A DNA stretch of 54,392 bases from Deltaproteobacteria bacterium (GCA_037446775.1 JBBIIA010000010.1:1-54392); one strand, 5' to 3'; positions 30,344 through 48,372 are shown, numbered from the stretch's first letter. Made by a program: numbers and translations. Notes: a model not told the origin generated them from the letters alone.

Positions 30344-30380
30344 CCTCTACTGACTTTCCTGACAGAATCGGTCCGCGTAA

Positions 30381-30516
30381 GGGGTTTTTTGACAGGATAA
30401 CAGGATAAAAGCAGGATAAATCGGATAAAGTCTTTTGTTTGAGGGCGGCGACACTGGTAGCAGCTACATCAGCCCCACCATCCTGAACATCCTGTTATCC
30501 TGTCAAAACCCCCCCG
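30381..30516. repeat. Intergenic inverted-repeat element, copy 3 (arms only: GGGGTTTTTTGACAGGATAACAGGAT ... ATCCTGTTATCCTGTCAAAACCCCC)
   Basis: Near-perfect, roughly 25-nt terminal inverted repeats around a core of about 85 nt that is AT-richer than its surroundings. The arms are themselves made of CAGGATAA-type direct sub-repeats. Lies between two genes of the hdr/flx cluster. Confidence 0.9.
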
Positions 30517-31542
30517 TCAAATCTTAGACACGTCCTGGACGATCTTTCGGATGTCCAGGTTTACTGGGCAGTTCAAGACGCAGCGGCCGCAGCCGACGCA
30601 GCCGATCAGGTCGAAGTTCTCGGGGATGTAGCGGAACTTGTGCATCACCCGCTGGCGCCAGCGCTCTTTTTGGCTCGACCTCGGGTTGTGGCCCGAGGCC
30701 TCCTTGGTGAAGAGCGGGAACATGCAGGAGTCCCAGCTCCGCAGCCGCACCCCGTCGTCCCCCTTCACCTCGTCGCTGATGTCGAAGCAGTGGCAGGTGG
30801 GGCAGAGGTAGGTGCAGGTGCCGCACGCCAGACACTTGCCGTGGAGCCCCGCCCAGAAGGGGTGCTCGAAGTTCTTCTGGAGGATCGGCTTCACCTCGGA
30901 CGCCGGCACCTGGGAGCGGATCGCCGCCCGGGCGGCCTCGCGCACCTGCTCCTTGCGGGCCGCCGCCTCGGCGCCGGCCGCCGGGCCCTCGAAGAACGAC
31001 AGGAGCGCCGCGCCCTTCTCGGTGAGGAACTCGGCCAGGACTTCTTCCCCCAGGTCGGTGACGAGCACGTCCACCCCCTCGGGGGCCCCGGGGACCGGCT
31101 CGCCCCCCACCGAGGTGCAAAAGCACGCGGCGTAGGGGGGCTGGGGGCACGCCAGGGCGACCACGGTGGCCCGCTCCCGGTGGCCGACGTAGTAGGGGTC
31201 GCGGCAGCCCGGCTGGTCGAACACCCGGTCCAGGAGCAAGAAGCTCTGGGCGTCGCACGGCCGCACCAGGAGCACCGTCTCCGCCGGCTCGTCCCCCTCG
31301 CCAACGGCCTCCACCCCCTTGGGGGTGCGGGTGTAGCGCACCAGGGTCTCGGTGTGGGGAAAGAGGGCGTTCTTCGGGGCGTTGCGGGTGTTGGCGAAGC
31401 CGAGCAGGGGCCCCTGCGACCCGGTTACCGGCCCGAAGACCACGTTGTCCCCGTCCTTCACCGGCCCGAGCACCCGCTTGGCGGCGGCGAGGCGCCGAAG
31501 TGCGTCGCCCAGGCCATCCTTCTTGAGCAGTCGCGTTTCCAT
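30517..31542 (-). CDS. 4Fe-4S dicluster oxidoreductase subunit (AsrA / HydB / FlxB-like)
   Basis: 341 aa from METRLLKKDG (ATG 31542 after GAGGAAA). Ferredoxin motifs CLACGTCTYLCPTC and CVGCGRCVLNCP. The 62-aa extension in the track was rejected. Confidence 0.8.
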   Translation of the reverse strand: METRLLKKDGLGDALRRLAAAKRVLGPVKDGDNVVFGPVTGSQGPLLGFANTRNAPKNALFPHTETLVRYTRTPKGVEAVGEGDEPAETVLLVRPCDAQSFLLLDRVFDQPGCRDPYYVGHRERATVVALACPQPPYAACFCTSVGGEPVPGAPEGVDVLVTDLGEEVLAEFLTEKGAALLSFFEGPAAGAEAAARKEQVREAARAAIRSQVPASEVKPILQKNFEHPFWAGLHGKCLACGTCTYLCPTCHCFDISDEVKGDDGVRLRSWDSCMFPLFTKEASGHNPRSSQKERWRQRVMHKFRYIPENFDLIGCVGCGRCVLNCPVNLDIRKIVQDVSKI

Positions 31543-31565
31543 GGGTTTCCTCGCGCTCGCCGGGG

Positions 31566-32411
31566 TCACAGGAAGATGCCCACCTGGCGCAGCAGCGGCA
31601 TGGGGTCGACGTGGTGATACTTGAGCCACTTGCCGGCGTCGGGGGCGCCCATGGCGAGCCCCATCAGCTCGGAGAAGTAAAAGATCGGCATGCCGTGGGT
31701 CGCCCGCATGTCCAGGTTGGCCATGCACTCGGGGCAGGCGGTCACGATGCAGTTGGCCCCGGCCTCCCGGGCCATGGCCACCAACCGGTCCACCAGCCGC
31801 ACCACCTGCTCGGTGCGGGCCACGGTGAGCGCCCCGCCGCAGCAGTCGGTCTTAAACGACCACGGCCGGGCCTCGGCCCCCAGGGCTTCTACCAGGTGGT
31901 CCATGGACATGGGGTTCTCGGGGTCGTCGAACCGGCAGACCTCGGGAGGGCGGACCAGCAGGCACCCGTAGTAGCTCGCCACCTTGAGGCCGGCGAGCTT
32001 GCGGGTCACCTTCTCCCGGATCGCCGGGAGGCCCACCTGGTTGACGTAAAAGTCCACCGAGTTGGTGATCCCCAGGTCGGCCTTGATCCGGCCCTGGAGC
32101 TCGTTCTCGATGCGGGCCTTCAGCTCGGGGTCGGCCTCAAGGTGGTGCTCGGCGGCCTTGAAGCGGTTGAAGCAGGCGGCGCACGGCACCATCACCTCCA
32201 GGCCCCGCTTCTGGGCGGCCATCAGGTTGCGGGCCGGCAGCACCACCCCCAGCTCGAAGTTGGTGGCGTGGCCCGAGGTGGCGCCGCAGCAGGTCCAGCC
32301 GTCCACCTCCACCAGGTTCACCCCCAGGGTCTTGGAGACCGACTGGATGGACTGGTCGTAGCCCTTGGCCGTGCCGTGCATGCAGCAGCCGGGATAGTAC
32401 GAGACGTTCAA
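31566..32411 (-). CDS. hdrB: Heterodisulfide reductase subunit B-like (two CCG domains)
   Basis: YYPGCCMHG...WTCCGATSG and YYGCLLVRP...DCCGGAL CCG-domain signatures. The TTG start overlaps the hdrC stop (TTGA). Confidence 0.88.
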   Translation of the reverse strand: MNVSYYPGCCMHGTAKGYDQSIQSVSKTLGVNLVEVDGWTCCGATSGHATNFELGVVLPARNLMAAQKRGLEVMVPCAACFNRFKAAEHHLEADPELKARIENELQGRIKADLGITNSVDFYVNQVGLPAIREKVTRKLAGLKVASYYGCLLVRPPEVCRFDDPENPMSMDHLVEALGAEARPWSFKTDCCGGALTVARTEQVVRLVDRLVAMAREAGANCIVTACPECMANLDMRATHGMPIFYFSELMGLAMGAPDAGKWLKYHHVDPMPLLRQVGIFL

Positions 32412-32965
32412 CGCGACTCTCCTTTACCGGGGGCGCCGCGGCCCTTGCGGGGGCGGTCGAAGATCTTGCGCACCTCTTGCTTGCCCTCGACCTTGGGGCC
32501 GAGGATCGGCAGCCGGCCCTTGGCGAACATCGAGAGGCCGATGCCCACGTCGGCGAAGAGGTCGCCGCTCTTCATCTTGTAGGCGCACACCATGAGGGCC
32601 TCGTGGATCCGGCCGTTCTTCTTGATGCTGTCGAGGAAGGCCTCGTGGAACGCGACGACCTTCTTCTCCGCCACCCGAACGCCGCTCTCCAGGGCCATCT
32701 GCCGCAGCACGTCCATCATGCGGGCGATGTCCACCTCGTTGGGGCAGCGCATGGTGCAGGTCTCGCAAGAGACGCACAGCCAAATGGTGGAGCTCCCCAG
32801 CACCTGCGGGCGCTGGTTTTGCTGCACCATCCGCACCACGGCGTTGGGCTTGTAGTCCATGGCGACCGCCATGGGGCACCCGGCGGTGCATTTGCGGCAG
32901 TGGAAGCACCGCTGGAGCGGCGCGCCCTTCACCTGGGCGTTCACGTCTTCGAGAAAGGTGGCCAT
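32408..32965 (-). CDS. hdrC: Heterodisulfide reductase subunit C-like
   Basis: 185 aa. CFHCRKCTAGCP and CVSCETCTMRCP 4Fe-4S motifs with the typical HdrC helical tail. Confidence 0.88.
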   Translation of the reverse strand: MATFLEDVNAQVKGAPLQRCFHCRKCTAGCPMAVAMDYKPNAVVRMVQQNQRPQVLGSSTIWLCVSCETCTMRCPNEVDIARMMDVLRQMALESGVRVAEKKVVAFHEAFLDSIKKNGRIHEALMVCAYKMKSGDLFADVGIGLSMFAKGRLPILGPKVEGKQEVRKIFDRPRKGRGAPGKGESR

Positions 32966-32986
32966 CGCTTGTCTCGCCCTTGATCC

Positions 32987-33994
32987 CTACGGGTTGTAAA
33001 TGAACGCCTCGGGGTCGTCTTCCTTGGCCTCGGCCAGCGCCGCCGGGTCCTCCGCCGAGAGCCCCGCCCTGCGGCCGAACAGCTCCAGCACGTCCTTGTC
33101 GAGCTTCTTGAGGAACCGCCGGAGGTCCACCCCCATGGGGCACACCGCGGTGCAGGACCCGCAGTCCACGCACCGCCCCGCCAGGTGGAAGAGCCGCATG
33201 AACTGGAACACCTGCACGTCGGAGGCGGCCTGGCCGATGCCCACCCACTGGGGCTGGCTCTGTTCGGCGAAGCACGTCCGGCAGTAGCAGGAGGGGCAGG
33301 CGTTGCGGCAGGCGTTGCACCGCATGCACTTGGCCATCTCGGCGGCAAAGCCCTGCCAGCGCGCCTCGGCGGAGAGCTTCTCCACCGCCTCCACCGGGGC
33401 GAACTCGCGGCTGGCGTCGTGGGGCGGGGCCGGTTCGCCGAGCATCACGTCGGAGAAGACCGGGTTGTTGAAGGCGCAGGAGGCGCAGCTGTCGGCCAAG
33501 AGCTCCGCCAGGGGCAGCTCCCGGTTGCCGGCGGCGGTCTCGACGGTCACCGCTCTCGCCCCAAAGGACCCGCCCTGGAGCTCCTCGCTGCCGGCGGCCT
33601 TGAGGAGTTTGCGGCGGTCCACCACCCCGGCGCAGGGGACCCCCAAGACCAGCACCTCGTCCCGGCCGTACTGGCGCTCGTTGAGGTGGATCGCCAGGGA
33701 CCGGGTGGTGCAGCCGGGGGCCACCACGGCGACCACCTTCTTCTTGCGGTCCTCGGGCTTGAGGCGCTTCTGGCTGTCCCGGTGGGCCATCACCTGGTCG
33801 TGGACGTACTTGGCCAGGTTCTGGCCGCAGCCCGGGTTCCACACCAGGCGCGCTACGTCCTCGGCCCGGGTGAGGAAGGCCGGGGTGGCGGTCAGGGGCA
33901 GGGTGCCGTCCTCGAACCCGACCACCACCTGGGCCCGGCCCTCGGCCAAGGCCCGGGCCGCTTCTTCTCGCATCTTCGTCACGATCTTGTCCAC
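32987..33994 (-). CDS. Fe-S oxidoreductase subunit, two [4Fe-4S] motifs (FlxC-like / Hdr-associated)
   Basis: 335 aa. CMRCNACRNACPSC and CVDCGSCTAVCP. GTG start 33994 follows AAGAGG. The N-terminal domain could not be assigned by eye. Confidence 0.7.
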   Translation of the reverse strand: MDKIVTKMREEAARALAEGRAQVVVGFEDGTLPLTATPAFLTRAEDVARLVWNPGCGQNLAKYVHDQVMAHRDSQKRLKPEDRKKKVVAVVAPGCTTRSLAIHLNERQYGRDEVLVLGVPCAGVVDRRKLLKAAGSEELQGGSFGARAVTVETAAGNRELPLAELLADSCASCAFNNPVFSDVMLGEPAPPHDASREFAPVEAVEKLSAEARWQGFAAEMAKCMRCNACRNACPSCYCRTCFAEQSQPQWVGIGQAASDVQVFQFMRLFHLAGRCVDCGSCTAVCPMGVDLRRFLKKLDKDVLELFGRRAGLSAEDPAALAEAKEDDPEAFIYNP

Positions 33995-34026
33995 GACTCA
34001 AACCTCTTGGCACTACAGCGGCTGGT

Positions 34027-34182
34027 GGGGGGAAACCCCACGGGATCCGCAGATTACGCAGATTACGCAGATGAAACCGGATGCGTATGGGGTCGGTGGT
34101 TCCAATCCCATGGTCACCCTTGAACAGCAGTGCATTCGGCGTGTCGTCCCGCCCGGAAGAAATCTGCGAAAATCTGCGGACC
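34027..34182. repeat. Intergenic element with inverted tandem 9-10-mers (CGCAGATTA x3 at 34048..34074; AATCTGCG x2 at 34161..34178)
   Basis: Read directly. Same architecture (direct sub-repeats forming inverted arms around a core of about 85 nt) as the element at 30381..30516, but a different sequence. Fills the mvhD / Fe-S gene spacer. Confidence 0.8.
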
Positions 34183-34194
34183 CGTCGCCCTAGT

Positions 34195-34659
34195 TCACAC
34201 GATCGCGGTAACCGGCTCGTCCAGGCGCTTCACCAGGCGGGTGGCGGGCCCGAGCTTTCGCACCTTGTCGGTGACGCCCTTCACCACCTGGGCGAAGCGG
34301 TCGCCCTCGGAGGCCGACACCCAGGTAAACGACGTCCGGTCGGCCTCGACCCCCACGTAGTCGAGAAAGCCCTTCAATAGGGCGAACTTCCGCCGGGCCG
34401 ACAGGTTCCCGGTGAGATAGTGGCACTCCCCGGGGTGGCAGCCCGAGATGAGCACCCCGTCGGCCCCCTCCTGGAGCGCCTTGACCACGTAAAACGGGTT
34501 GATCCGCCCGGTGCACGGCACCCGGACGATCCGCACGTTGGGCGGGTACTGGATGCGGCTGATCCCGGCGAGGTCCGCCCCGGCGTAGGTGCACCAGGTG
34601 CACACGATGGCGAGGATCTTGGGCTCCCAGGGTTCGGTCTTCGCGGCTGGTTCGGCCAT
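34195..34659 (-). CDS. mvhD: MvhD/FlxD-like [2Fe-2S] electron-transfer subunit (methyl-viologen-reducing hydrogenase delta-subunit family)
   Basis: KILAIVCTWCTYAGADLAG...RVPCTGRINP...ISGCHPGECHY signature. Start taken at MAEPAAK (ATG 34659, GAGG 10 nt upstream). The track ORF begins 24 nt earlier. Confidence 0.88.
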   Translation of the reverse strand: MAEPAAKTEPWEPKILAIVCTWCTYAGADLAGISRIQYPPNVRIVRVPCTGRINPFYVVKALQEGADGVLISGCHPGECHYLTGNLSARRKFALLKGFLDYVGVEADRTSFTWVSASEGDRFAQVVKGVTDKVRKLGPATRLVKRLDEPVTAIV

Positions 34660-34718
34660 GTTCGATATACCTCGATGGTGCATGCTCGATGCTCGATCCG
34701 GGAAGCGAGCCCCCCGTT

Positions 34719-34788
34719 CCCTACGCCCTACTCCCTACACCCTACTCACTACTCGCCATTCGCCATTCACCATTCACCATTCCCTACA
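34719..34788. repeat. Tandem heptanucleotide array of 10 units (CCCTACG CCCTACT CCCTACA CCCTACT CACTACT CGCCATT x2 CACCATT x2 CCCTACA)
   Basis: Read directly, exact period 7. The last unit contains the TAG stop (34784..34786) of the HdrL-like gene. A TGCTCGA x2 doublet lies at 34684..34697. Confidence 0.9.
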
Positions 34789-37700
34789 TCGCCCCAATCT
34801 GCGCCAGGATCTCCTCGTTATTAAACCCGTTGAGGTCCACGGCGTTCATGCGGCAGGAGGAGGTGCAGACCCCGCAGCCCTTGCACAGCACGGTGTTGAC
34901 CACTGCGGCGAGCTCCTTGGGGTCGACGGCGATGGCGCTGTAGGGGCAGTTGATCTCGCACAGCCCGCACGCCATGCACCGCTCCTTAATCACGTACGCG
35001 GTCTTGCCCTCGGCTTCGATGTAGGGCTGGGTGAGGACCGTGGCGGCCCGCGAGACGGCGGCGTTGGCCTGGGTGACACTCTCGTCGCTCATCTTCGGCG
35101 AGTGGGCGAGGCCGCAGACGAAGACCCCGTCGGTGGCAAAATCCACCGGCCGCAGCTTCACGTGGGCCTCCAGGAAGAAGCCGTCCTGGTTGGTGGGCAC
35201 CTTGAGCATCTTGCCGATGTCGGCGTTTTCCGGGTTGGGGGCCACCCCCACGCTCAGTACCACCAGGTCGGCCCCCAGGTGCACCGGCTGGTTTAGGACC
35301 GGGTCGAAGGCCCGCACCGCCACCCCACCCCCCTGGGCAAAGACCTCGGGGCGGCGCTCCTCGTCGTAGCGCACGAACTGGATGCCGAGCTCCCGGGCCT
35401 CCCGGTAGAAGTCCTCCTTGAGGCCGTAGGTCCGCACGTCCCGGTACAGGATGGTGATCTCCCGAGCCGGGTCCGCCTTCTTCAGCCGCAGCGCGTTTTT
35501 AATCGCCTCGCTGCAGCAGTAGCGGCTGCAGTAGGGGTGCTCGGCGGTGCGGGAGCCCACGCACTGGATCATCACCACCCGCTTGATCGCCCCCAGGCGC
35601 GGGTCGTCCTCCCCCAGGGCGCCCTCGAGCTCCCGCTGGGTGACCACCCGCTCGGAGTGGCCGTACAGGTAGTCGGTGACCTCCATCTCCTGGCCGCCGG
35701 CGGCCACGATCACCACCCCGTGGTCGAACTGCCGCTCCCCCTCGGGGGTGGCGACGGTGGTCTGGTAGTTGCCGATGAAGCCGTCGATCTTGTCGGCCCG
35801 GGACCCGGTGTAGACGGTGATCCGGGGGTTCTTGGCCACCTGGTCCAAGAGCTTTCGCAGGTGCTTCTGGGTGTCGAAGCCCTCCAGGGTGAAGTGGAGG
35901 TGGCGGTAGTTGCCCCCGAGCTCGGGCTCCTTTTCGACGATGCAGGAGTCAAAGCCCTGGTCGGCGAGCGTCAGGGCCGCGGTGATGCCCGCGAGGCCGC
36001 CCCCGAGGATCAGGGCCGCCGGGGTCACCGGGAGCTGGCCGGGCTTCAAGGGCTTTAAGTACGCGGACTTGGCCACCGCCATCCGCACCAGGTCCTTGGC
36101 CTTGACGGTGGCCGCCTCGGGCTCGTGCATGTGCACCCAGGAGCCCTGGTCCCGGATGTTGGCCATCTCGAAGAGGTAGGGGTTGAGGCCCGCCTTCTCC
36201 AGGTTCTCCTGAAACAGGCCCTCGTGGGTGCGGGGCGAGCAGGAGGCGACCACCACCCGGGTGAGGTCGTGGTCCCGGATCGCCTCGGCCATCTTCACCG
36301 CCGAGTCCTGGGAGCAGGTGAAGAGGTTGTCGCAGACGAAGGAGACGTTGGGCAGGCCCTTGGCGTACTCGGCCACCCCGGGGACGTCGATCACGCCGCC
36401 GATGTTGATGCCGCAGTGGCAGACGAAGACCCCGACCCGGGGGCCAGTGCCCTGGAGGTCCTTCTCGGCGGGGAGCTCCTCCTCCGCCACCAGGGTGCCC
36501 CGCTGGCTCGCCAAGAGGCCCTGGACGCACGCCGCGGCGCCGCTCGCCTCCATGACCGTCTCGGGGATGTCCTTGGGGCCGCCAAAGGCGCCGCAGACGT
36601 AGACCCCGGGGCGGGAGGTGGCCGCCGGGTTTTCGAGCGAGGTCTGGCAAAAGCCGCTGGGGGTCAGCTCGATCCCCAGGGCCCGGGCGAGCTCGGGGGC
36701 CTCCGCCGGGGGGGTGAGGCCCACCGACAGGACCACCATCTCGAACTCCTCCTCCACCGAGGTGCCGTCCTCCTGGACGTAGGTGAGCAAGAGGTTCTTC
36801 GAGCGCTGGAGCTCCTTGACCGTGGAGGGGATCGACCGGATGTAGCGGATGCCGTAATCCTTCTTCGCCCGCTCCACGAAGCGGTCGAAGTCCTTGCCGT
36901 GGGCGCGGATGTCCATGAAGAAGATGGTCGGCTCCAGGGCCTTGGCGTGCTCCTTGCCGATGATCGCCTCCTTGGTGGCGTACATGCAGCACACCGAGGA
37001 GCACCAGGTGTTGCCGCAGCGCACGTCCCGGGAGCCGACGCACTGCAAGAAGGCGATCTTCTTCGGCTCCTTGCCGTCGGAGATCCGCTGGACGTGGCCG
37101 AAGTAGGGCCCCGAGGCCGAGAGGATCCGCTCGAACTGGACGCTCGTCACCACGTTGGGGTAGACCCCGAAGCCGTACTCCCCAAGCGCCGCCGGGTCGA
37201 AGGCCGTAAAGCCGGGGGCGGCGATCACCGCCCCCACCTGGAGCTCGACGGTCCGGGGCGCGTCGTCGTGGACCACCGCCCGGGCGATGCACGCCTCGAC
37301 GCACTGGTAGCACTCGGAGCACAAGCCGCAGGAGAGGCAGCGCTCGGCCTCGGCCCGGGCCTGGGCCTCGGTCATGGGCTGGATGACTTCGCGGAAGTGG
37401 GTGCGCCGCTCCGCGGGGGGCAGGTGGGGCATGTGGAGCCGGGGGGCCTTGGGGGTCGCGCTCACGTCCCCCGGGTCGGCCAGGTTCTCCTCCCAGTTCC
37501 GGGCCCGGCCTGCGGCCAGGTCTTCGCCCCGCAGGAAGCGGTCGATGGAGACCGCGGCCTCCTTGCCGGCGTTGACCGCCTTGACCACCGTGGCCGGGCC
37601 GGTCACCGCGTCGCCGCCGGCGAAGACGCCGGGCAGGCTGGTGGCAAAGGTCACCGGGTCGGCGTCGATCTGGTTCCACCGGTTGACCACCGCGCCGCTG

Positions 37701-39208
37701 CCGTTGGCGAGAAACGACAGGTCGCACTGCTGGCCGATGGCGGGCACCACCGCGTCCACCTCGAGCTGGAACTCCGAGCCCTTCACCGGCACCGGCCGAC
37801 GCCGCCCCGAGGCGTCGGGCTCGCCGAGCGCCATGCGGACGCACTCGATGGCCCGGACCTTGCCGTTTTCGCCGATGACCCGCACCGGCGCCACCAGAAA
37901 CTCCATGCGGACGCCCTCGTCCAGGGCCTCCTCGATCTCCTCGGGGGCGGCGGGCATCTCGGCCCGGCCGCGGCGGTACAGGCAGACCACGTCCTTGGAG
38001 CCGGTGCGCAGCGCCGTGCGCACCGCGTCCATGGCCACGTTGCCGCCCCCCACCACGGCCACCCGGTTGCCCAAAAAGACCTTCTCCCCGAGGTTGATGC
38101 GCTTGAGGTAGTCGACCCCGTGGACGACCCCCTCCAACTCCTCCCCGGGGACGTCCAGCTTGGCGCCCTTTTGGGCCCCCACCGCCACGAAGACCGCGTC
38201 GTAGTCGCGGCGCAGGTCGGCAAAGGCCACGTCGGTGCCCACCGCGGTGTTGAGGCGGATGTCCACCCCCAGGTCGCGGATCGCCTGGATCTCGGCGCCC
38301 AAGACGTCCCGGGGCAGCCGGTACTCGGGGATCCCCGCCCACATCCAGCCCCCCGCCACCGGCAGGGCCTCGAAGACGGTGACGTCGTAGCCCTCGGCGG
38401 CCAAAAAGTACGCCGCGGTGAGCCCGCCGGGGCCGGCCCCGACGATGGCGACCTTCTTGCCCTGCTTCGCCTTCACCTCGGGCACGTAGCGGGTCTCGGC
38501 CTTCAAGTCCAGGTCGGCCACGAAGCGCTTGAGGTGCATGATGTCGATGGGCTCGTCCACCTCGGCCCGCTTGCAGGCGGCCTCGCAGGGGTGGTTGCAG
38601 ACCCGGCCGCACACCGAGGGGAAGGGGTTCTCCTGCTTGATCAGCTTCAAAGCCTCGGCGTACTTGCCCTGGCCGATCAGGGCTACGTACCCCTGGACGC
38701 TGATGTGGGTGGGGCAGGCGGCCTTGCACGGCGAGGTGCCCCGCTTCTCGATGGCGAAGGCGGCGGGGATGGCCTGGGGGAAGTGGCGGTACGCCGCGGT
38801 GCGGGTGGCCAGGCCGCCGTTGAACTCGTCGGGCCGGGGCACCGGGCACACCTTGGCGCAGTCGCCGCAGCCCGTGCACTTGTCCAGGTCGACGAAGCGG
38901 GGGGCCTGGGCGAGCCGCACGGTGAAGCGGCCGGCCGTCCCCTCCACCGCTTCCACGGTGGCCTGGGTAAGGATCTCCACGTTGGGGTGGCGCCCCACCT
39001 CCACGAGCTTCGGCGACAGGATGCACGCCGAGCAGTCGTTGGTGGGGAAGGTCTTGTCCAGCTGGGCCATGACCCCGCCGATCGAGATCCCCTTCTCCAC
39101 CAGGTAGACCTTCATCCCGGAGTTGGCGAGGTCCAAGGACGCCTGGATGCCGGCGATCCCCGCCCCCACCACCATGACTGCGCCTACGTTTGAGCCGTTC
39201 GTCGACAC
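34784..39208 (-). CDS. HdrL-like giant flavoprotein: HdrA module with an inserted GltD/NfnB-like NAD(P)H module, followed by a second HdrA-like module and a 2x[4Fe-4S] ferredoxin tail
   Basis: Uninterrupted 1509-codon ORF. Start chosen at GTG 39208 (AAGGAAG SD 6 nt upstream), giving 1474 aa. Four dinucleotide-binding motifs (VVGAGIAGI, IVGAGPGGL, VVGGGNVAMD, ILGGGLAGI). HdrA signatures: DKTFPTNDCSACIL, QCVGSRD...CSSVCCMY, GVFVCHCGINIGG, QCVGSRT...CSRYCCS. GltD-like signature: GRVCNHPCEAAC. Confidence 0.9.
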   Translation of the reverse strand: MSTNGSNVGAVMVVGAGIAGIQASLDLANSGMKVYLVEKGISIGGVMAQLDKTFPTNDCSACILSPKLVEVGRHPNVEILTQATVEAVEGTAGRFTVRLAQAPRFVDLDKCTGCGDCAKVCPVPRPDEFNGGLATRTAAYRHFPQAIPAAFAIEKRGTSPCKAACPTHISVQGYVALIGQGKYAEALKLIKQENPFPSVCGRVCNHPCEAACKRAEVDEPIDIMHLKRFVADLDLKAETRYVPEVKAKQGKKVAIVGAGPGGLTAAYFLAAEGYDVTVFEALPVAGGWMWAGIPEYRLPRDVLGAEIQAIRDLGVDIRLNTAVGTDVAFADLRRDYDAVFVAVGAQKGAKLDVPGEELEGVVHGVDYLKRINLGEKVFLGNRVAVVGGGNVAMDAVRTALRTGSKDVVCLYRRGRAEMPAAPEEIEEALDEGVRMEFLVAPVRVIGENGKVRAIECVRMALGEPDASGRRRPVPVKGSEFQLEVDAVVPAIGQQCDLSFLANGSGAVVNRWNQIDADPVTFATSLPGVFAGGDAVTGPATVVKAVNAGKEAAVSIDRFLRGEDLAAGRARNWEENLADPGDVSATPKAPRLHMPHLPPAERRTHFREVIQPMTEAQARAEAERCLSCGLCSECYQCVEACIARAVVHDDAPRTVELQVGAVIAAPGFTAFDPAALGEYGFGVYPNVVTSVQFERILSASGPYFGHVQRISDGKEPKKIAFLQCVGSRDVRCGNTWCSSVCCMYATKEAIIGKEHAKALEPTIFFMDIRAHGKDFDRFVERAKKDYGIRYIRSIPSTVKELQRSKNLLLTYVQEDGTSVEEEFEMVVLSVGLTPPAEAPELARALGIELTPSGFCQTSLENPAATSRPGVYVCGAFGGPKDIPETVMEASGAAACVQGLLASQRGTLVAEEELPAEKDLQGTGPRVGVFVCHCGINIGGVIDVPGVAEYAKGLPNVSFVCDNLFTCSQDSAVKMAEAIRDHDLTRVVVASCSPRTHEGLFQENLEKAGLNPYLFEMANIRDQGSWVHMHEPEAATVKAKDLVRMAVAKSAYLKPLKPGQLPVTPAALILGGGLAGITAALTLADQGFDSCIVEKEPELGGNYRHLHFTLEGFDTQKHLRKLLDQVAKNPRITVYTGSRADKIDGFIGNYQTTVATPEGERQFDHGVVIVAAGGQEMEVTDYLYGHSERVVTQRELEGALGEDDPRLGAIKRVVMIQCVGSRTAEHPYCSRYCCSEAIKNALRLKKADPAREITILYRDVRTYGLKEDFYREARELGIQFVRYDEERRPEVFAQGGGVAVRAFDPVLNQPVHLGADLVVLSVGVAPNPENADIGKMLKVPTNQDGFFLEAHVKLRPVDFATDGVFVCGLAHSPKMSDESVTQANAAVSRAATVLTQPYIEAEGKTAYVIKERCMACGLCEINCPYSAIAVDPKELAAVVNTVLCKGCGVCTSSCRMNAVDLNGFNNEEILAQIGAM

Positions 39209-39359
39209 GGGTTCTTCCTTCGGACTCGGCGTGAAGTCGCTACCGTTCGGGTCTTCGCCCGTCGTGCACGGAGGCACAAGGGCGGGCAGGCCCTGCCTTG
39301 TACTAAACGTCACGGGCCGGAGTCAAGGCCCGCGACGGCGGTCGCCCCCGGTATCCGGT

Positions 39360-39892: not shown

Positions 39893-40805
39893 AGAAGCCC
39901 TCCGAGTCGAAACAGTGGGGGTAGAGGCGCCGGGCCAGGGCGAGCTCTGGGGGGAACTCCTCCCCCTCCCAGCGGGTGAGGCCGGGCTCCGCCGGGAGCT
40001 CCACCCCCAGGGGCTCCAGACGGGCGCCGGTTTCGGCCAGAAACGGCCCGACGACGCCCTCGTTCTCCTCGGGCGCGTAGGTGCAGGTGGAGTAGACCAG
40101 GGTTCCGCCCGGGGCGAGGAGCTCGTAGCCCCGGCGCAACAGCGCGCCCTGCTGGCGGGCGAGGTGGCGCCGCAGCCCCGCGGAGGGGGGCTGGGGGCGG
40201 GCCCGGGGCCCCCGCCAGGTCCCCTCCCCCGAACACGGGGCGTCCACCAGGACCCGGTCGAACTTGCGCCCCAAGGGGAAGTTCTGGCCCGGGTAGCCGG
40301 TGACGACGGCCGCGGTGAGCCCCAGGCGATCCAGGTTGGCCGTAAGGGACTGGAGCCGCCGGGGGTTCGGTTCGTTGGCCACCACCGCTCCCCGATCCCC
40401 CATCGCCTGGGCGAGCAGGGTGGTCTTGGACCCCGGCGCCGCGCACAGGTCGAGGACCGCCTCGCCGGGGCGGGCCCCCAGGGCCAGGGCCGCCACGGCG
40501 GAAGAGGCGCTCTGCAGGTAAATCAACCCGAGGGCGTGGAGGAGGGTCGCCCCCAGGGCCCGGGGTGGCTCCCCTTCGACCCGGAGCAGAAACGGGCACC
40601 ACGGCTCGGGGCGGGTCACCACGCCCTGGGCAGCCAGGGCAGCCGCGACGCCCCCCACCTCGGCCCGCAGGGTATTCACCCGCAGGTGGGCCGGAGAGGG
40701 CCGCGCCACCGCCGCGAGGAACCCGGGGAAGTCGGGGACCAGCCCCTGGTAGCGGGCAAACACCCGCCCGTAGCGCCCGCCCCGATCCGGCGCCTCACCG
40801 GTCAC
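39867..40805 (-). CDS. NOL1/NOP2/Sun-family RNA cytosine-C5 methyltransferase (RsmB/RsmF-like)
   Basis: VLDLCAAPGSKTT (SAM motif), VLVDAPCSGEGTWR and LVYSTCTYAPEENE catalytic Cys motifs. The GTG start 40805 overlaps the upstream TGA (GTGA). Confidence 0.88.
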   Translation of the reverse strand: MTGEAPDRGGRYGRVFARYQGLVPDFPGFLAAVARPSPAHLRVNTLRAEVGGVAAALAAQGVVTRPEPWCPFLLRVEGEPPRALGATLLHALGLIYLQSASSAVAALALGARPGEAVLDLCAAPGSKTTLLAQAMGDRGAVVANEPNPRRLQSLTANLDRLGLTAAVVTGYPGQNFPLGRKFDRVLVDAPCSGEGTWRGPRARPQPPSAGLRRHLARQQGALLRRGYELLAPGGTLVYSTCTYAPEENEGVVGPFLAETGARLEPLGVELPAEPGLTRWEGEEFPPELALARRLYPHCFDSEGFFVARLARP

Positions 40806-41560
40806 CACGCCCCCACCGCCACCGGGGCGAACCCCGCGAAGTCGGCGCTCACCAACAGGTAGGTCACCCCGCCCCGGACCCCGTAGGGGTTGGCGAAGCC
40901 CTCGGCGCCCCGCCCGTGGAGGTGGCCGAACACCGCGCACTCCACCCCGTAGCGCTCTAGGAGCCGGGTGACCGGGGTCTCCTCCAGGGCCGGCGAGGTG
41001 GGGGGGAAGTGCAGGAGGGCGATCCGCCGCCGGGCATCACCGCCGAGGCACCGCAGGCTCGCCTCCAGCCGGTCGAGCTCTCGCCGGTAGATCTTCTCGT
41101 CGTCCTCTCCCCGGATGCCCACCAGGCGATCGGGGCCCTCCTCCGCTTCCGGGGGGCTCGGGCCCAGGGCCCGGAAGTCCAGGGTCGGATCGACCCACCC
41201 CCGGGCGCCGGCGAACCCCACCCCGTCCAAAACCACGGCGTCGTGCTGGAGGGCGTAGGTCTCCGGCGGGAGCGCCCCCCGCACCTTGCCGATGGCGCCC
41301 CACCAGTAGTCGTGGTTCCCCTTCACCAGCACCTTGCGCCCGGGCAGCCGCCCGAGCCACGCCAGGTCGGGCGCCGCCTCGGGGAGCTTGAGCGCCCAGG
41401 AGAGGTCCCCGGGCAGGCACACCACGTCCTCGGGCATTACCCGCTCCCGCCAGGCGGCCTCCACCCGGGCCTCGTGGGCCCGCCAGTGATCCCCAAACAC
41501 GTCCATGGGCTTGGGGCGAGCCAGGGAGAGGTGGAGGTCGGAGATGGCCCAGATGCGCAC
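40802..41560 (-). CDS. Calcineurin-like metallophosphoesterase
   Basis: MRIWAISDLHL...LPGDLSW...VKGNHDYWW...GHLH motifs. GTG start. Confidence 0.85.
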   Translation of the reverse strand: MRIWAISDLHLSLARPKPMDVFGDHWRAHEARVEAAWRERVMPEDVVCLPGDLSWALKLPEAAPDLAWLGRLPGRKVLVKGNHDYWWGAIGKVRGALPPETYALQHDAVVLDGVGFAGARGWVDPTLDFRALGPSPPEAEEGPDRLVGIRGEDDEKIYRRELDRLEASLRCLGGDARRRIALLHFPPTSPALEETPVTRLLERYGVECAVFGHLHGRGAEGFANPYGVRGGVTYLLVSADFAGFAPVAVGAW

Positions 41561-43467: not shown

Positions 43468-44841
43468 CTAGTCCAACCGCGGCACCGCACCCGGGGGGCA
43501 GTCGACCCGGGCCCGGGCTTCCTTGAGCTTGAAGCCGGGGCTCCGGGAGCGGGTGTGGCACCCCCGGCACCCCTCGGCCGCGGCGGCCAGGGAGCGGGGC
43601 ATGGGGGCGGCGGGGTGGAGGCTCCCGGGCCCGTGGCACGCCTCGCACTGGACGCCCCCCAGGTCGACGGTCGCCCCCTCGGCCCAGCCTCCCCACTCCC
43701 CGAACCCGGTCACGTGGCACTCCAGGCACTCGGCCCGCCGCCGGTCCCCCGGCGGCAGCCGCTCCAGGGCCCGGGCGTGAGGCTGGGTCCGCCACTGCCG
43801 GTGGGCGTCCGAATGGCACCGCGCGCACTCCCGGGCCGACACGTACAGGGCCCCGCCCTGGCGGACGTTGACCGCCAGTTCCTCTTCGTCCGAGACGATC
43901 CCGTGGGGCACCCGCAGCTTGGCGACGGCGGCAAAGCGGTAGTAGCGGTCGACCAGCCGGCGGACGGCGGGCTCGTCGGGATACTCGGGCTTCATGGCCA
44001 CGAGCCCATGGGTCAGGGCAGCCCGCCCCCCGGGCAAGCCGGTGACGGTGACGTGGCCGAGGTAGCGCCCCAGGTGGGCGACGCTGCCCACCAGCGCCGA
44101 ACCGATCCGCCACGGCAGGCGGACCTTGTCGTCGGGGTCCCCGGCGACCAGGAGGTCCACCTCGTCCACGGTCTTGGCGGCCAACCGAAGCTTCTTGGGG
44201 TCCACCGCCGACAGGACCACCACCAGGTCACACCCGGCGGCCTTCAGCTCCTGGGCGTACCGCTTGATCGCCCCAAAGGTGGGTTCGAGGCGGAAGTCGT
44301 CGCCGAACTCCCGGACCTGCAGGGTCGAGTCGAGGATCCCCACCAGCCCCACCCGAAACCCTCCGGCCCCCACGATCACCCACGGGCGGAACACCGGGTC
44401 CCCCGAGTTGCGGTCGACGAGGTTGGCACACAGGAAGGGAAATCGGGCCCTCGCCTCCAGGGCACGCAAGAACGGCAAACCGGCGGCGAAATCGTAGGGC
44501 CCCAGTCCCATCGCGGCGACCCCGATCTCGTTGTAGGCGTCGATGATGGTCTCCGCCTTGAACCGGAGCTGCTCGGCTTCGATGGGCCGGAGCTGGCTGC
44601 GACCGAAGAGCGCGTTGCCCCCGTCGAGCGCTAGAACCGCCGCGCCCCGCCGCCGGGCATCCTTGACGAAGTGAGCCTTCTTGGCGAGACCGCCAAGTGG
44701 GTTCTGGGCTCACCCGCAGATGCCGACGGTCCCTCGCACCTCCGAGGTGTACACCAGGTGCACGGCCGCGGTCTCCGTCGGCACGACGGCGACCGCTTCG
44801 GAGATCCCGAGGAGCAGCAGGATCAGCAACAGCCACGCCAT
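43468..44841 (-). CDS. Candidate selenoprotein: secreted degenerate 5'-nucleotidase/metallophosphoesterase-like domain fused to a tetraheme cytochrome c; in-frame TGA (44710..44712) read as Sec
   Basis: The ATG 44841 ORF (MAWLLLILLLLGISEAVA signal peptide) continues in frame through one TGA into track ORF 43468..44511. The junction reads ...VRGTVGICG-[TGA]-AQNPLGGLAKKAHF.... The C-terminus has 4 CXXCH sites (CARCH, CLECH, CEACH, CRGCH). The paralog at 44989..46398 has a TGA at the same aligned position. Confidence 0.7.
44680..44697 (-). other. SECIS-like hairpin downstream of the in-frame TGA of the minus-strand paralog
   Basis: CTTGGCG-GTCT-CGCCAAG, a perfect 7-bp stem starting 13 nt after the TGA. 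GGTCT occupies +19..+23. Confidence 0.5.
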
Positions 44842-44899
44842 GGATTTCCTCTCCCGGAGCCAGGTTTTCCTCCTCGCTCCACCCCACGGGTCAGGACCC

Positions 44900-44929
44900 T
44901 TGAACCCTTTATCACAGGTCTGTTATGGT
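44900..44929 (+). promoter_or_regulatory. Possible sigma70-type promoter for the plus-strand paralog (TTGAAC-18 nt-TATGGT)
   Basis: Hexamer matches only. It lies in the 147-bp divergent spacer and is followed by the palindrome TCCCGCG-GT-CGCGGGA (44940..44955), GAGGAG and ATG 44989. Confidence 0.3.
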
Positions 44930-44988
44930 CAGCACGTTGTCCCGCGGTCGCGGGAGAACGCCTATCGCCTTCCCGCCGAGGAGTCAGC

Positions 44989-46398
44989 ATGCGCTCGATC
45001 GCCATGGCCACCCTACTCGGACTCGCCCTCATCGGCCAGCCCACCCGAGCGACGACAACGCCGCCCGCCGGCTTCACCCTGCTGTACTCCGCGGACGAAC
45101 GGGGCGAGATCGAGCCCTGCGGGTGACAGGACAACCCGCGTGGCGGTCTGGCCAAGCGAGCGACGTACATCCAGGGCGTTCGCGCCGAAGGGCGACCCCA
45201 CCTGGTGGTGTCGGCCGGTAACCTGTTGTTTCGCCGGGAGCGGCTGAAGGCGGAGCACCGGGAGGCGGATCGCCTCAAGGCGGACCTGCTGCTCCGGGGC
45301 TACCACCTCACGGGGATCGACGCCCTCAACGTCGGCGCCTACGACCTCTCCCTGGGCGTCGGCTACCTTCGGGCCAAGCAAGCCGAGCACCGCCTCCCGC
45401 TGCTCTCGGCGAACCTCCGCGACGAGAAGGGGAACCTCTGGTTTCGGCCCCACGTCCTCAAGGAGGTCGGGGGCGTCAAGGTGGGCATCCTCGGCCTCAC
45501 CGATCCCCGACTGAAGGTGGACAAGATCCCCGGGGGAGAGCAGGTGCGGGTTCAGCCCCCCCGGGAGAGCGTGGATGCCGCCGTGCGCGAGCTCAAGGCC
45601 CAGGGCGCCACCTACCTCGTGCTCCTGACCGATATGACCAGCCGATCCCTGCGCCGACTCGCCGCCAAGGGGCTCCCCGTAGACGCCATCATCGCCAGCG
45701 ACGAGCGCAACCAGATCGCCTCCCCCTTCTTCCTCGGTCCTACCTACGTGACCCACCTGGACCGGGGAGGCAAGTGCATCGGCCGCCTCGAGGTGGCCCT
45801 GCTCAAGCCCGGGCAGGAGCCACCGCCGGGCACCCTGCGCACCACCGGGCGCCCCGGAGGGGAAGTGGCCTACCGAAACACCTTCGTCCAACTGCGGCTC
45901 TCGATCCCCGACGACCCGATCCTCGGCCCGCTGGTAGCGGCGGTCGCCCAGCGGGTGGCCGAACTCCAGGAGGAGTCGAGCAAGAAGCTCCAGCCGGTGG
46001 CCGACTCCGACTGCGGCAAGCGGTATCTCGGCGCCGGCGCCTGCGTCTCCTGCCACTCGGACCGCCACCGGGGCTGGTCGGCCACCAGCCACGCCCTGGC
46101 GTACACCACCTTGGTCAAGCGCAAGAAGCAGTTCGACGAGGACTGCCTCGCCTGCCACACCTTGGGTTTCGAGTGTGAAGGGGGGTTCTTCGACCCGGAG
46201 AACCTGGGCGGCTTCGCCCACGTCCAGTGCGAATCCTGCCACGGTCCGGGGCAGGTCCACGTGGAAGCCAAGGGCAAGGCCCCCATGCCCACCCGTCGCC
46301 CCTCGGCCGCCGTGTGTCGCCGTTGCCACACCGAGGAGAAGAGCCCGGATCTAGACCTCGCCCGGGCCCGCCTGACGATCTGCCGCCCCGCTCCCTAG
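44989..46398 (+). CDS. Candidate selenoprotein: secreted degenerate 5'-nucleotidase/metallophosphoesterase-like domain fused to a tetraheme cytochrome c; in-frame TGA (45124..45126) read as Sec
   Basis: ATG 44989 follows GAGGAG. Signal peptide MRSIAMATLLGLALIG. Same frame as track ORF 45205..46398. The junction reads ...ADERGEIEPCG-[TGA]-QDNPRGGLAKRATYI.... The C-terminus has 4 CXXCH sites (CVSCH, CLACH, CESCH, CRRCH). Confidence 0.7.
45137..45158 (+). other. SECIS-like hairpin downstream of the in-frame TGA of the plus-strand paralog
   Basis: CGCGTGGC-GGTCTG-GCCAAGCG, an 8-position stem with one mismatch that starts 11 nt after the TGA. GGTCT occupies +19..+23, the same offset as in the other paralog. 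Confidence 0.45.
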
Positions 46399-46536: not shown

Positions 46537-48372
46537 TCAGTGGGCCAAAAACCCCCAGACGATCAAGCCGATGCACAGGAGGCCGATCCCCAGGGCGGTG
46601 AACCCGAAGAGGTGCCCCAGGAGGTCGGCGAGGGGGTGGGTCGGTTTGGCGCGCATCGACTCCAGGGTGCCCTTGGCGCGGAGCCGCTCCACCCAGGAGG
46701 CCCGTTCCTCCCACAGCTCGTACTTCGGCATCCGTCCCTGGAAGATCACCATGTCCATGGGGAACTTACCGGGCCGGAAGTGGGTGTTGAAGAAGTGCAC
46801 CGTGAAGATGAAGCCGGTCGCCAAGAGGGCCTCGTCGCTGTGGACGATGATGGCGACGTTGAAGATCCACCCGGGGAGGACCGCGCCAAACCACTCGGGG
46901 AACCACAGCAGAAGCCCCGAGCCGCCGATGGCGAACATCCCCCAGAAGACCGCCAGGAAGTCGAACTTCTCCCAGTACGTCCAGCGGTCGAAGGTCGGCT
47001 CCTTCCCGCGGCCGAAGAACCACCGGATCATCGCTCCGATGTCCGTCACGTCCCGCCGGTTGGGGAAGAGGGAGTCGGGCCCAAAGAGCTTCTGCCAGAA
47101 GCTCTCTCCGGTCTTCTTGAACAGCAAGTAGTAACAGACGTAGGCGAGGCAGGCACCGAAGTACACGAAGGTGACCACGGCGCACACCCGGTGCCAATAC
47201 CCCGCCATGTGCGGTCCGCCCAAAAGCTTCATGATCGCCGGCGCCCAGGGGGCGTCGTAAAACTTGAGGGGCAGGCCGGTGATGACCAGGCCCAGGAAGC
47301 TCACCACCATCAGAAGGTGCTGCATCCGATCGAACCCGTTGAACCGCCGGTAGGGCCGCAGGGGCTCGTCCACGTGGGGGTGGGCGTAGTGCCCATCCAG
47401 AAGCTTCTGGCAGCGGGCCCAGTAGGCCTTGCGCCACCACAAGAAGGTGTGGAGCCAGAAGACCGCGAAGACCGCCACCAGGAGGCTCGTCATGGCCACG
47501 AAGGTGTAGTACAGGACGGGGTAGTTTTCCTTGTCCCGGTGGTCGGCGTGGGACAGGAACTGGGCGAAGAGCGGCGTCGCGTGGGGGTGGCAGACGGCGC
47601 AGGTCGCCACCACCCGGTCCGGGTGAATGGTCGACTCGGGATCGTCGGCCCGGCGCACCGCGTGGGCGCTGTGGCAGTCGGCACACCCCGCGGCCAGGGC
47701 CGAGCCGAGGGCCTCGACCTTGCCGTGGTAGCTCTCCTCGTAGGTCCTGGAAGCCACCACAAGAACGTCGTTGCGCGCCATCATGGCGGCGTCGGCGTGG
47801 CAGCGCTGGCAGGTCTCGGTGTGGAACTCCCGGCCGGCGTGGGTGTTCTTGTCGGGCACCGGCTCGATGCGGTGCATGCCGTGGCAGTCCGCACAGGACG
47901 CCGAGTCGTTGTTCCCCGCCGCCACCGCCACCCCGTGGACGCTAGCCAGGTAGGCATCGCCGTCGTGGCAGCCGAGGCACTTGTCCACCACGCTCTGCTT
48001 GTTGCCGTCCCACTTCTGGATGGTGTGCACGTCCGAGTGGCAGTCCGCGCACTTGATGTCGTTGAGCATGTGGGCCGAGGCGAAGTGGTCACGCCCCTGG
48101 TTGGGATGGCAGCGGTGGCAGGTGTCCACCTTGTCCTGGGTCCGGGACCCGCAAGTCTCGTGGTCGGCGATGTCGACCACGTCGTAGTGGCAGCTGTTGC
48201 AGGCGTGGCGGCCGTGGGCAGAAGCGGCGAACGCCGCGTAGTCCATCTCCTCGTGGCACTCGATGCACCGACTGTCGTCGATGGTCGCCCACGCCACCGG
48301 CACGCCCCCCAAGAGCAGCAACGCACCCAGGACCCAACTCCCCAATCGTCCCTCGTCCAAACGGATACGCAT
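46537..48372 (-). CDS. CbcL-like fusion: periplasmic nine-heme cytochrome c domain plus integral-membrane b-type cytochrome (HydC/FdnI-like) domain
   Basis: 611 aa with a signal/anchor sequence. Nine CXXCH sites (CIECH, CNSCH, CHRCH, CADCH, CLGCH, CADCH, CQRCH, CADCH, CAVCH). These are followed by 4-5 TM helices with conserved His (e.g. RMQHLLMV, YWHRVCAV, IIVHSDEAL, FTVHFFNTH). Confidence 0.88.
   Translation of the reverse strand: MRIRLDEGRLGSWVLGALLLLGGVPVAWATIDDSRCIECHEEMDYAAFAASAHGRHACNSCHYDVVDIADHETCGSRTQDKVDTCHRCHPNQGRDHFASAHMLNDIKCADCHSDVHTIQKWDGNKQSVVDKCLGCHDGDAYLASVHGVAVAAGNNDSASCADCHGMHRIEPVPDKNTHAGREFHTETCQRCHADAAMMARNDVLVVASRTYEESYHGKVEALGSALAAGCADCHSAHAVRRADDPESTIHPDRVVATCAVCHPHATPLFAQFLSHADHRDKENYPVLYYTFVAMTSLLVAVFAVFWLHTFLWWRKAYWARCQKLLDGHYAHPHVDEPLRPYRRFNGFDRMQHLLMVVSFLGLVITGLPLKFYDAPWAPAIMKLLGGPHMAGYWHRVCAVVTFVYFGACLAYVCYYLLFKKTGESFWQKLFGPDSLFPNRRDVTDIGAMIRWFFGRGKEPTFDRWTYWEKFDFLAVFWGMFAIGGSGLLLWFPEWFGAVLPGWIFNVAIIVHSDEALLATGFIFTVHFFNTHFRPGKFPMDMVIFQGRMPKYELWEERASWVERLRAKGTLESMRAKPTHPLADLLGHLFGFTALGIGLLCIGLIVWGFLAH

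Follow-up and report, generated by a model that had tools for sequence, protein, structure and literature searches.

A divergent pair of UshA-like tetraheme selenoprotein genes from a Deltaproteobacterium, with a candidate haem-linked (seleno)thiol site

What does a phosphoesterase fold do once its metal ligands are gone, a Cys-Gly-selenocysteine motif stands in one of its loops and a tetraheme cytochrome is fused to its C-terminus? This question is raised by two genes, here called A and B, in a 54,392-nucleotide stretch of DNA from a Deltaproteobacteria bacterium (GCA_037446775.1, JBBIIA010000010.1:1–54392); hereafter, the window means that whole stretch. The genes are transcribed divergently, 147 bp apart, and each encodes an exported two-domain protein of about 460 residues with a signal peptide. 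An earlier note, made from the sequence alone, had interpreted them as a phosphoesterase scaffold turned into a periplasmic chalcogen or redox-active site wired to haems, belonging to a selenoprotein family not yet described. In that interpretation the fold, the loss of metal ligands, the cytochrome c554-like C-terminus and the Cys-Gly-selenocysteine (CG-U) motif held up, whereas the undescribed family did not. The two proteins are new members of a catalogued, widespread and functionally uncharacterised family, not a new kind of system. Our preferred reading of what they do, held with about even confidence, is that they would act as periplasmic haem-wired (seleno)thiol oxidoreductases, in effect cytochrome c:(seleno)thiol oxidoreductases.

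Family membership was established with the NCBIfam model NF041198, 'UshA-like (seleno)protein' (UshA_like_PCGU). With selenocysteine (Sec, U) written as Cys, gene A scored 304.4 bits and gene B 346.1 bits, both above the cut-off of 275. The profile has 519 positions; when the halves were scanned separately, the N-domain matched positions 8–269 and the tetraheme C-domain positions 403–516, where the isolated C-domain of gene B scored 112 bits. Because the model spans both domains, the whole architecture is already contained in a curated family. Its C-G-C/U column was invariant in 23 full-length sequences and in about 77 loci, and four CXXCH motifs were present in every locus examined. The window proteins share with NF041198 the full-length architecture, the P-C-G-U/C motif and the C-terminal four-CXXCH domain; they differ from it in lacking a middle insert of about 130 profile positions, in the I-C-G-U of gene A (instead of P-C-G-U) and in a Cys, carried by both, where a conserved C-terminal His stands.

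The family has been on record for some time. A 2008 GOS selenoproteome paper lists "COG0737, UshA-like, CxU", with 76 Sec sequences and 92 Cys homologues (PMC2398784), a 2022 review lists the UshA-like CxU family (PMC9312934) and a 2026 review cites NF041198 together with a second family, NF049981 (PMC13188914). The excerpts of these three sources on which we draw assign no function to the UshA-like family and make no mention of a haem domain in it. Literature searches on selenocysteine in Deferrisoma, and on a metallophosphoesterase with a multiheme c554, returned nothing relevant. Given the NF041198 scores and the selenoproteome listings, the claim of an undescribed family is therefore wrong. 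The earlier note had also held that a characterised family with this exact motif and a known function would speak against it; the family and the motif were indeed known, and the function was not. The NF041198 assignment names the genes without explaining them.

The family is large and often truncated in databases. At E ≤ 1e-30, a profile search of 1.84 billion cluster representatives gave 6,956 matches; at E ≤ 1e-100, over 150 matches were nearly full-length. The family spans at least ten phyla and candidate lineages. Many public entries for Sec forms begin past the UGA and therefore lose both the signal peptide and the CG-U motif; where they are named at all, they are called 'multiheme c-type cytochrome' or 'hypothetical protein'. 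One such entry (P0001, 397 amino acids) is the downstream open reading frame (ORF) of gene B, 45205–46398, called without the CG-U region. Another, from RefSeq (P0049, L001:8001–9071, 356 amino acids), is annotated 'multiheme c-type cytochrome [Deferrisoma]' and starts downstream of the UGA. These post-UGA starts are a systematic mis-annotation.

Every motif quoted in the earlier note could be located, and the paired architecture of an UshA-type N-domain, CG-U and a four-CXXCH C-terminus was borne out. Gene B has DERG, SAGN, GAYDLS and LSANL, gene A has SEVRG, DGGN, GPYDFA and LCANL, and GGLAK occurs in both; each gene has a Cys-Gly-Sec triad in the loop past the first motif, where an in-frame TGA directly follows Cys-Gly, and each protein has four CXXCH motifs at its C-terminus. 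The two proteins are old paralogues, because they are only 35% identical (E 3e-75). Within the window, whose G+C content is about 70%, both genes look monocistronic. A promoter scan that included the intergenic region (44842–44988) found no sigma-70 consensus or sigma-70-like promoter, and a terminator scan gave a single terminator-like site, inside a coding sequence (CDS).

Exactly one in-frame TGA interrupts each gene, in the contexts VGICG(TGA)AQNPLGGLAKK in gene A and IEPCG(TGA)QDNPRGGLAKR in gene B. The segments ahead of it are in frame, begin with an ATG behind a GGAG-type ribosome-binding site (GAGGAG for gene B, GGAGAGGAAA for gene A) and encode hydrophobic signal peptides. The G+C content at third codon positions is 0.95 upstream of the TGA and 0.92 downstream in gene A, and 0.89 and 0.90, respectively, in gene B. 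We then compared 80 related loci, retained from a scan of one genome per species. At the column of interest, 18 loci have TGA, never TAA or TAG, and about 59 have Cys, all in the same (P)CG[C/U] context. The TGA loci come from Deferrisomatales, Desulfobulbia/Desulfurivibrionaceae, Myxococcota, Blastocatellia and Eisenbacteria, which represent at least four phyla, and the Cys loci from Planctomycetota (including Scalindua), Verrucomicrobiota, Acidobacteriota, Armatimonadota, Myxococcales, SAR324 and Nitrospinia. This comparative pattern is the strongest evidence that the TGAs are probably decoded as Sec.

A putative selenocysteine insertion sequence (SECIS) is also present. Both window genes, like the Sec forms of Desulfobacterota and Myxococcota, have a hairpin with a GGUCU-type loop 12–15 nucleotides past the UGA, and that of gene B recurs in the Deferrisomatales orthologues at L001, L004 and L009. 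Within the window, neither a tRNA-Sec (searched with ARAGORN) nor sel genes were found, and Rfam at gathering thresholds gave no match. ARAGORN did call a tRNA-Pro (GGG) at 37751–37842 on the minus strand; it lies inside the CDS of a 1512-amino-acid HdrA-like protein and is probably a false positive.

The N-domain belongs to the calcineurin-like/5'-nucleotidase superfamily by several routes. On gene A, the best NF041198 stretch covers residues 5–267, and the SoxB, CpdB and UshA models match the same domain at E values of 1e-17 to 1e-9, all far under their cut-offs. A phmmer search of gene B against the Protein Data Bank (PDB) gave 2z1a (E 4e-11) and 1ush (E 4e-8), followed by SoxB and CD73-like enzymes. 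The earlier note had expected a Pfam Metallophos or 5_nucleotid match; neither PF00149 (Metallophos) nor PF02872 (5_nucleotid_C) matched the window proteins at E < 1, and it was the NCBIfam and PDB sequence searches that revealed the relationship. An AlphaFold2 (AF2) model of a Cys homologue, P0084, stood in for the window proteins (predicted local distance difference test score 85.6, predicted template modelling score 0.83). Foldseek placed it closest to E. coli UshA, CD73 and 2z1a, with E values down to 5e-21 and a probability of 1.00 over 300–370 columns. Profile, PDB sequence and Foldseek searches thus all show the relationship, and for the modelled homologue the predicted structure confirmed the fold.

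The metal site of this fold is gone. UshA binds its two metals through D41, H43, D84, N116, H217, H252 and Q254, with His117 as the catalytic residue. In the alignment to 2z1a and 1ush, the D-x-H position is D-E-R in B and E-V-R in A, the GD position is G-N in both (within S-A-G-N in B and D-G-G-N in A) and the G-N-H-E position is G-A-Y-D in B and G-P-Y-D in A; two later His ligands, judged against 2z1a, are Asp and Asp in B and Ala and Asp in A. The loss of ligands at the D-x-H, GD and GNHE positions had already been noticed from the sequence; neither these columns nor those of the two later His are conserved among the 23 full-length homologues. The invariant N-domain columns in that set are C44, G45, C/U46, G52 and G77 only. 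Because no metal-ligand column is kept while C-G-C/U is invariant, CG-U is the only conserved candidate active site, and by the same alignments the phosphoesterase site is lost. Exchange of Sec and Cys at one invariant position is typical of redox-catalytic residues.

Comparison with characterised relatives defines what has changed. The window proteins share with UshA and other 5'-nucleotidases (1USH, 2Z1A, CD73) the N-domain fold, the motif order, the GG(L)A(R/K) helix, the SANL strand and a periplasmic or secreted location. They differ in lacking the metal ligands and the catalytic His, in having a tetraheme cytochrome in place of the C-terminal nucleotide-binding domain and in the new CG-U motif in the loop past motif I. 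SoxB (TIGR04486), a periplasmic enzyme of the same 5'-nucleotidase superfamily that acts on cysteine-bound sulfur, was among the better enzymatic models after NF041198 (A 61 bits, E 7e-17; B 38.6 bits, E 4e-10; cut-off 550). It retains a dimanganese site and has no haem domain, whereas the window proteins lack the metal ligands. An intact small calcineurin-like phosphoesterase is encoded 2 kb from gene A (40802–41560, minus strand; Pfam Metallophos E 2.5e-12) and is unrelated to the pair.

The C-terminal domain is a c554-like tetraheme module, as the earlier note had it. Pfam PF13435 (Cytochrome_C554; gathering threshold 20.8) matched A at 49.1 bits (residues 338–404) and B at 41.7 bits, and a phmmer search of the PDB aligned residues 347–422 of gene B to the c554 structure 1bvb (E 7.5e-6). 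Cytochrome c554 of Nitrosomonas europaea (1BVB, 1FT5) has the same order of four CXXCH motifs and shares the signatures CxxCH...W...HA, CxxCHxxG and CESCHGPG. It is a free electron carrier, whereas the window module is a domain of a fusion protein. Nor are the window proteins its orthologues: against NF043010 (N. europaea CycA) they scored 32.4 and 35.3 bits, far under the equivalog cut-off of 400.

The haem ligands of this domain add a feature of the window's own lineage. Beyond the four CXXCH motifs, the invariant residues of the C-domain are H368, H424 and E415; the two His presumably correspond to the c554 distal ligands His27 and His102. A third candidate distal ligand, about 18–20 residues past the last CXXCH, is His in most homologues and Cys in both window proteins (C448 of A, 43471–43530; C465 of B, 46381–46383), a further difference from c554. 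The same Cys occurs at L001, L004, L009, L010, L016, L072, L034, L047 and L069; its carriers are Deferrisomatales and Desulfobacterota relatives (mostly Desulfobacterota Sec forms) together with one Cys-form clade. Because there are three candidate distal ligands for four haems, one haem would lack a conserved sixth ligand, as in c554. The His-to-Cys change may produce a His/Cys-ligated, low-potential haem.

Neighbouring ORFs were clustered over all loci. Directly downstream of the UshA-like gene, 13 loci of Planctomycetota, Verrucomicrobiota and related lineages have members of one clustered family, and 11 of these 13 carry CxxC. A domain scan of four members found a thioredoxin-like domain at L006 and, weakly, at L007, and HEAT repeats only at L024. 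At both L006 and L007, the Cys-form gene closes a conserved cluster that resembles the Bacteroides aerotolerance (Bat) operon: upstream lie two large unknown proteins and DUF4159, with DUF58 at L006 and BatA/VWA at L007. The thioredoxin/HEAT protein comes next, followed in eight loci, including L007 (where it is annotated SIMPL), by a further conserved protein.

In 13 other loci, from Scalindua, Planctomycetaceae and Fimbriimonas (L030, 4768–5817; L031, L036, L054, L073, L075–L078, L084 and L086–L088), a DUF1573 immunoglobulin-like protein is encoded directly upstream of a Cys-form UshA-like gene. The sole conserved Cys pair of these upstream proteins is a CxC, as in S-C-G-C-T, and the L030 copy scored 91 bits, just under the cut-off of 100, against the NCBIfam OS_HP2 family (seleno)protein model. 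The part of the 2026 review that we use counts DUF1573, too, among the selenoprotein families, with a UGC motif (PMC13188914). We found no mention of the DUF1573/UshA-like pairing in the literature searched.

Such associations extend to fusions. DUF1573, UshA-like and tetraheme domains are joined in P0137, P0180 and P0255, and P0121 (1207 amino acids) and P0122 combine an UshA-like domain (CEC), a DsbA-like domain, a second UshA-like domain (CGC) and a tetraheme domain. The DsbA-like Pfam matches are weak (25.8 and 23.1 bits, cut-off 25.6), and the domain in P0121 carries CPYG. In P0089, P0110, P0115 and P0119, periplasmic TlpA-like CPHC thioredoxin domains are joined to a tandem pair of c554-like tetraheme modules; these have the CESCHGPG signature and are of the kind seen in the window proteins. 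These gene neighbours and domain fusions support, indirectly, the idea of a redox site wired to haems.

In the window and in loci of the Deferrisomatales type, the neighbours look like membrane multihaem cytochromes that resemble quinol oxidases. Next to gene B is a gene for a 611-amino-acid membrane protein, 68% identical to its copy at L009; orthologues lie next to the UshA-like gene at L009 and L010 and nearby at L004. From its domains, this protein is a candidate quinol-oxidising electron donor or acceptor. A second type, an NrfH/NapC-type protein of 745 amino acids, is the immediate divergent neighbour of the UshA-like gene at L001, L009 and L010; its window orthologue sits 38 kb from the gene pair. 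The possibility that the 611-amino-acid protein and the 745-amino-acid neighbour at L001 and L004 are the same was rejected, as only CXXCH noise aligned, and these are two distinct conserved neighbours. Their architectures recall the Geobacter menaquinol oxidases CbcL and ImcH, a likeness of architecture only (PMC12307469). Elsewhere in the window, a heterodisulfide-reductase-like cluster (29477–39322, minus strand) encodes the 1512-amino-acid HdrA-like flavoprotein, which has several iron–sulfur (Fe–S) domains, an Fe–S protein with a weak match to the FrhB/FdhB C-terminal domain, a CCG-domain (HdrB-like) protein, a 4Fe–4S dicluster protein and an NAD/FAD-binding oxidoreductase.

We favour the oxidoreductase reading because the Cys-x-Cys/Sec pair alone is conserved in the N-domain, where Cys and Sec swap, because that pair is always joined to a tetraheme electron-transfer module, because the protein and the module recur with CxxC and CxC proteins and because the neighbours in its own lineage are membrane multihaem proteins that resemble quinol oxidases. 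From this we infer redox activity at CG-U, communication between that site and the haems, and a partnership with the neighbouring cytochromes. Translation would start upstream of the TGA and insert Sec there, so that CG-U, in the loop past the former motif I, could form a redox-active selenenylsulfide/selenol–thiol centre. The four haems would link this centre to the respiratory electron-transfer chain, which in this lineage may be accessible via quinol-oxidase-like multihaem cytochromes of the membrane, the nine-haem/cytochrome b protein at 46537–48372 being an example. Electrons would then pass, in one direction or the other, between c-type haems and extracytoplasmic substrates or partner proteins of the thiol/disulfide type.

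The proposed role, delivering electrons to or from extracytoplasmic Cys pairs, would be shared with the DsbD/CcdA–TlpA/ResA relays. Those use CxxC on a thioredoxin fold, whereas here CxC or CxU sits on a metallophosphoesterase fold, and haems are the proposed electron source, in place of cytoplasmic thioredoxin acting through a membrane protein. The likeness is one of function and implies no family membership.

Several observations weigh against this reading. Haems carry one electron, whereas a dithiol/selenenylsulfide couple carries two. Neither the window nor the Desulfobacterota Sec-form loci contain a DUF1573 or thioredoxin-like partner, so the thiol-partner evidence comes from Cys-form clades of other phyla. 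The genes found beside it in Acidobacteriota (Maf, DciA and an ATP-binding cassette ATPase) look like housekeeping genes and are uninformative, and where a genome is rich in cytochromes, some of the adjacency to multihaem genes may be coincidence. On the RNA side, single-sequence fold z-scores of the hairpins were not significant (z = -0.66 for gene A), and the hairpin was absent from the RNAalifold result for 13 Sec-form sequences. Manual pair counting in the best register found that 75.6% of cells pair, with one compensatory pair only; room for variation in this RNA is limited, because the hairpin overlaps the conserved GGLA(K/R) codons. Finally, the 2008 paper, in the part used here, placed UshA-like among the few families without a recognised Cys-based redox motif (PMC2398784).

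A different use of the same residues is the alternative that survives best, although we think it rather unlikely. Instead of relaying electrons as a dithiol, CG-U/CGC could bind or carry a substrate that is a metal, a metalloid or a chalcogen (As(III), Cu(I), Hg, selenium, or the sulfur of a polysulfide or persulfide, for example). The haems would reduce or oxidise the bound species, and the protein would be a terminal reductase or oxidase for it in the periplasm. In favour of this, SoxB, with its cysteine-bound sulfur substrate, is among the closest enzymatic relatives, soft metals can be chelated by CxC motifs, and the Sec forms occur mainly in Desulfobacterota lineages that respire sulfur and iron. 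His/Cys haems occur in sulfur enzymes, and the C-terminal Cys of the window proteins, if it is a haem ligand, would resemble them. However, the SoxB scores fall far short of that model's cut-off, and its conserved partners have a thioredoxin fold or a CxC motif and are not transporters of sulfur or metals. A specialised respiratory substrate is also disfavoured because the family is so widespread, aerobic Planctomycetota, Verrucomicrobiota, Acidobacteriota, Armatimonadota and Myxococcus included.

Less probable still, and in our judgement improbable, is a role in haem ligation, in which one haem (the counterpart of c554 haem II) takes its axial ligand from the motif's Cys or Sec, which tunes the potential or reactivity of that haem, with the N-domain only a scaffold. 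The four haems have between them three conserved candidates for distal ligands (H368, H424 and the C-terminal His/Cys), which would leave a place for such a ligand, and c554 (1FT5/1BVB) has one five-coordinate haem. Other selenoprotein multihaem cytochromes, such as ExtKL and the OTR family, are also catalogued in the excerpt of the 2026 review (PMC13188914). Yet a single ligand would not need two invariant thiol/selenol residues (C-G-C), and the CxC of DUF1573 and the CxxC of thioredoxin partners favour exchange chemistry, as the oxidoreductase reading would have it.

The two remaining alternatives are both very improbable, and we rejected them. A working phosphoesterase or nucleotidase with the haem domain as an unrelated add-on draws on the homology and fold match to UshA, CpdB and CD73, but residues have been exchanged wherever the alignment has a metal ligand or the catalytic His, the family conserves none of these positions, and there is neither a 5_nucleotid_C domain nor a Pfam Metallophos match at E < 1. 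Reading the TGAs as genuine stops, in pseudogenes or split genes whose ORFs 43468–44511 and 45205–46398 alone are expressed as plain cytochromes, fits the gene callers and database records that annotate only the downstream part (P0001, P0049) and the weak SECIS statistics, but is very unlikely because those ORFs alone have no signal peptide, although c-type haem attachment requires export; moreover, the upstream segment is in frame, coding-like and conserved, TGA is the only stop codon found at the Cys column across 18 loci in at least four phyla, and the curated NF041198 model matches across it.

Table 1. Coordinates of the gene pair, its parts and the multihaem neighbours in the window.
Feature	Position	Strand	Remarks
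Gene A, UshA-like tetraheme selenoprotein	43468..44841	minus	457 codons including Sec, plus stop codon
Gene B, UshA-like tetraheme selenoprotein	44989..46398	plus	469 codons including Sec, plus stop codon
Shared divergent intergenic region, presumed to bear promoters	44842..44988		147 bp
Gene A in-frame TGA, read as Sec in I-C-G-U	44710..44712	minus	aligns to invariant Cys of CGC forms
Gene B in-frame TGA, read as Sec in P-C-G-U	45124..45126	plus	aligns to invariant Cys of CGC forms
Gene A SECIS-like hairpin, CUUGGCG-GUCU-CGCCAAG, 7 bp	44680..44697	minus	begins 15 nt past the U of UGA
Gene B SECIS-like hairpin, CGC.UGGC-GGUCUG-GCCA.GCG	45137..45158	plus	begins 13 nt past the U of UGA
Gene A N-domain, degenerate 5'-nucleotidase/metallophosphoesterase fold	44041..44766	minus	about residues 26–267
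Gene B N-domain, degenerate 5'-nucleotidase/metallophosphoesterase fold	45070..45813	plus	about residues 28–275
Gene A c554-like domain (CARCH, CLECH, CEACH, CRGCH)	43471..43845	minus	ends ...RARVDCPPG
Gene B c554-like domain (CVSCH, CLACH, CESCH, CRRCH)	46021..46395	plus	ends ...RLTICRPAP
611-amino-acid membrane protein, nine CXXCH and FdnI-like cytochrome b domain	46537..48372	minus	Pfam/NCBIfam; converges on gene B
NrfH/NapC-type multihaem cytochrome, about 745–799 amino acids	3487..5886	minus	tblastn 61% identity at 3493–5706

Taken together, the window genes and their relatives lead us to a broader and more tentative proposal: the family may represent an unrecognised type of extracytoplasmic redox enzyme, in which the dimetal centre of the hydrolase has been replaced by a Cys-Gly-Cys/Sec centre and a c554-like tetraheme module serves as the wire that fills or empties it directly from the respiratory chain. 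With DUF1573 (C/U-G-C) and thioredoxin-like partners, it might provide a widespread pathway, independent of DsbD/DsbB, for periplasmic thiol redox homeostasis or for the detoxification of peroxides and disulfides, and the Deferrisomatales Sec forms, with their C-terminal Cys, might be a low-potential variant coupled to CbcL-like or NapC-like quinol oxidases.

A selenoproteome specialist would not be surprised by these genes. What is added here is a testable hypothesis, drawn from neighbours and fusions, and the His-to-Cys substitution in Sec forms of the Deferrisomatales type. The family is very large, its members are spread over ten or more phyla and candidate lineages, and selenoproteome papers have included it since 2008, while it has stayed functionally uncharacterised; gene callers that cut at the Sec codon and name the rest 'multiheme c-type cytochrome' hide its N-terminal active-site region. 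It is an attractive target for characterisation. If the oxidoreductase reading is true, the family would represent a new route by which respiratory electrons enter the thiol chemistry of the bacterial periplasm, and a clear example of a redox scaffold derived from a hydrolase fold.

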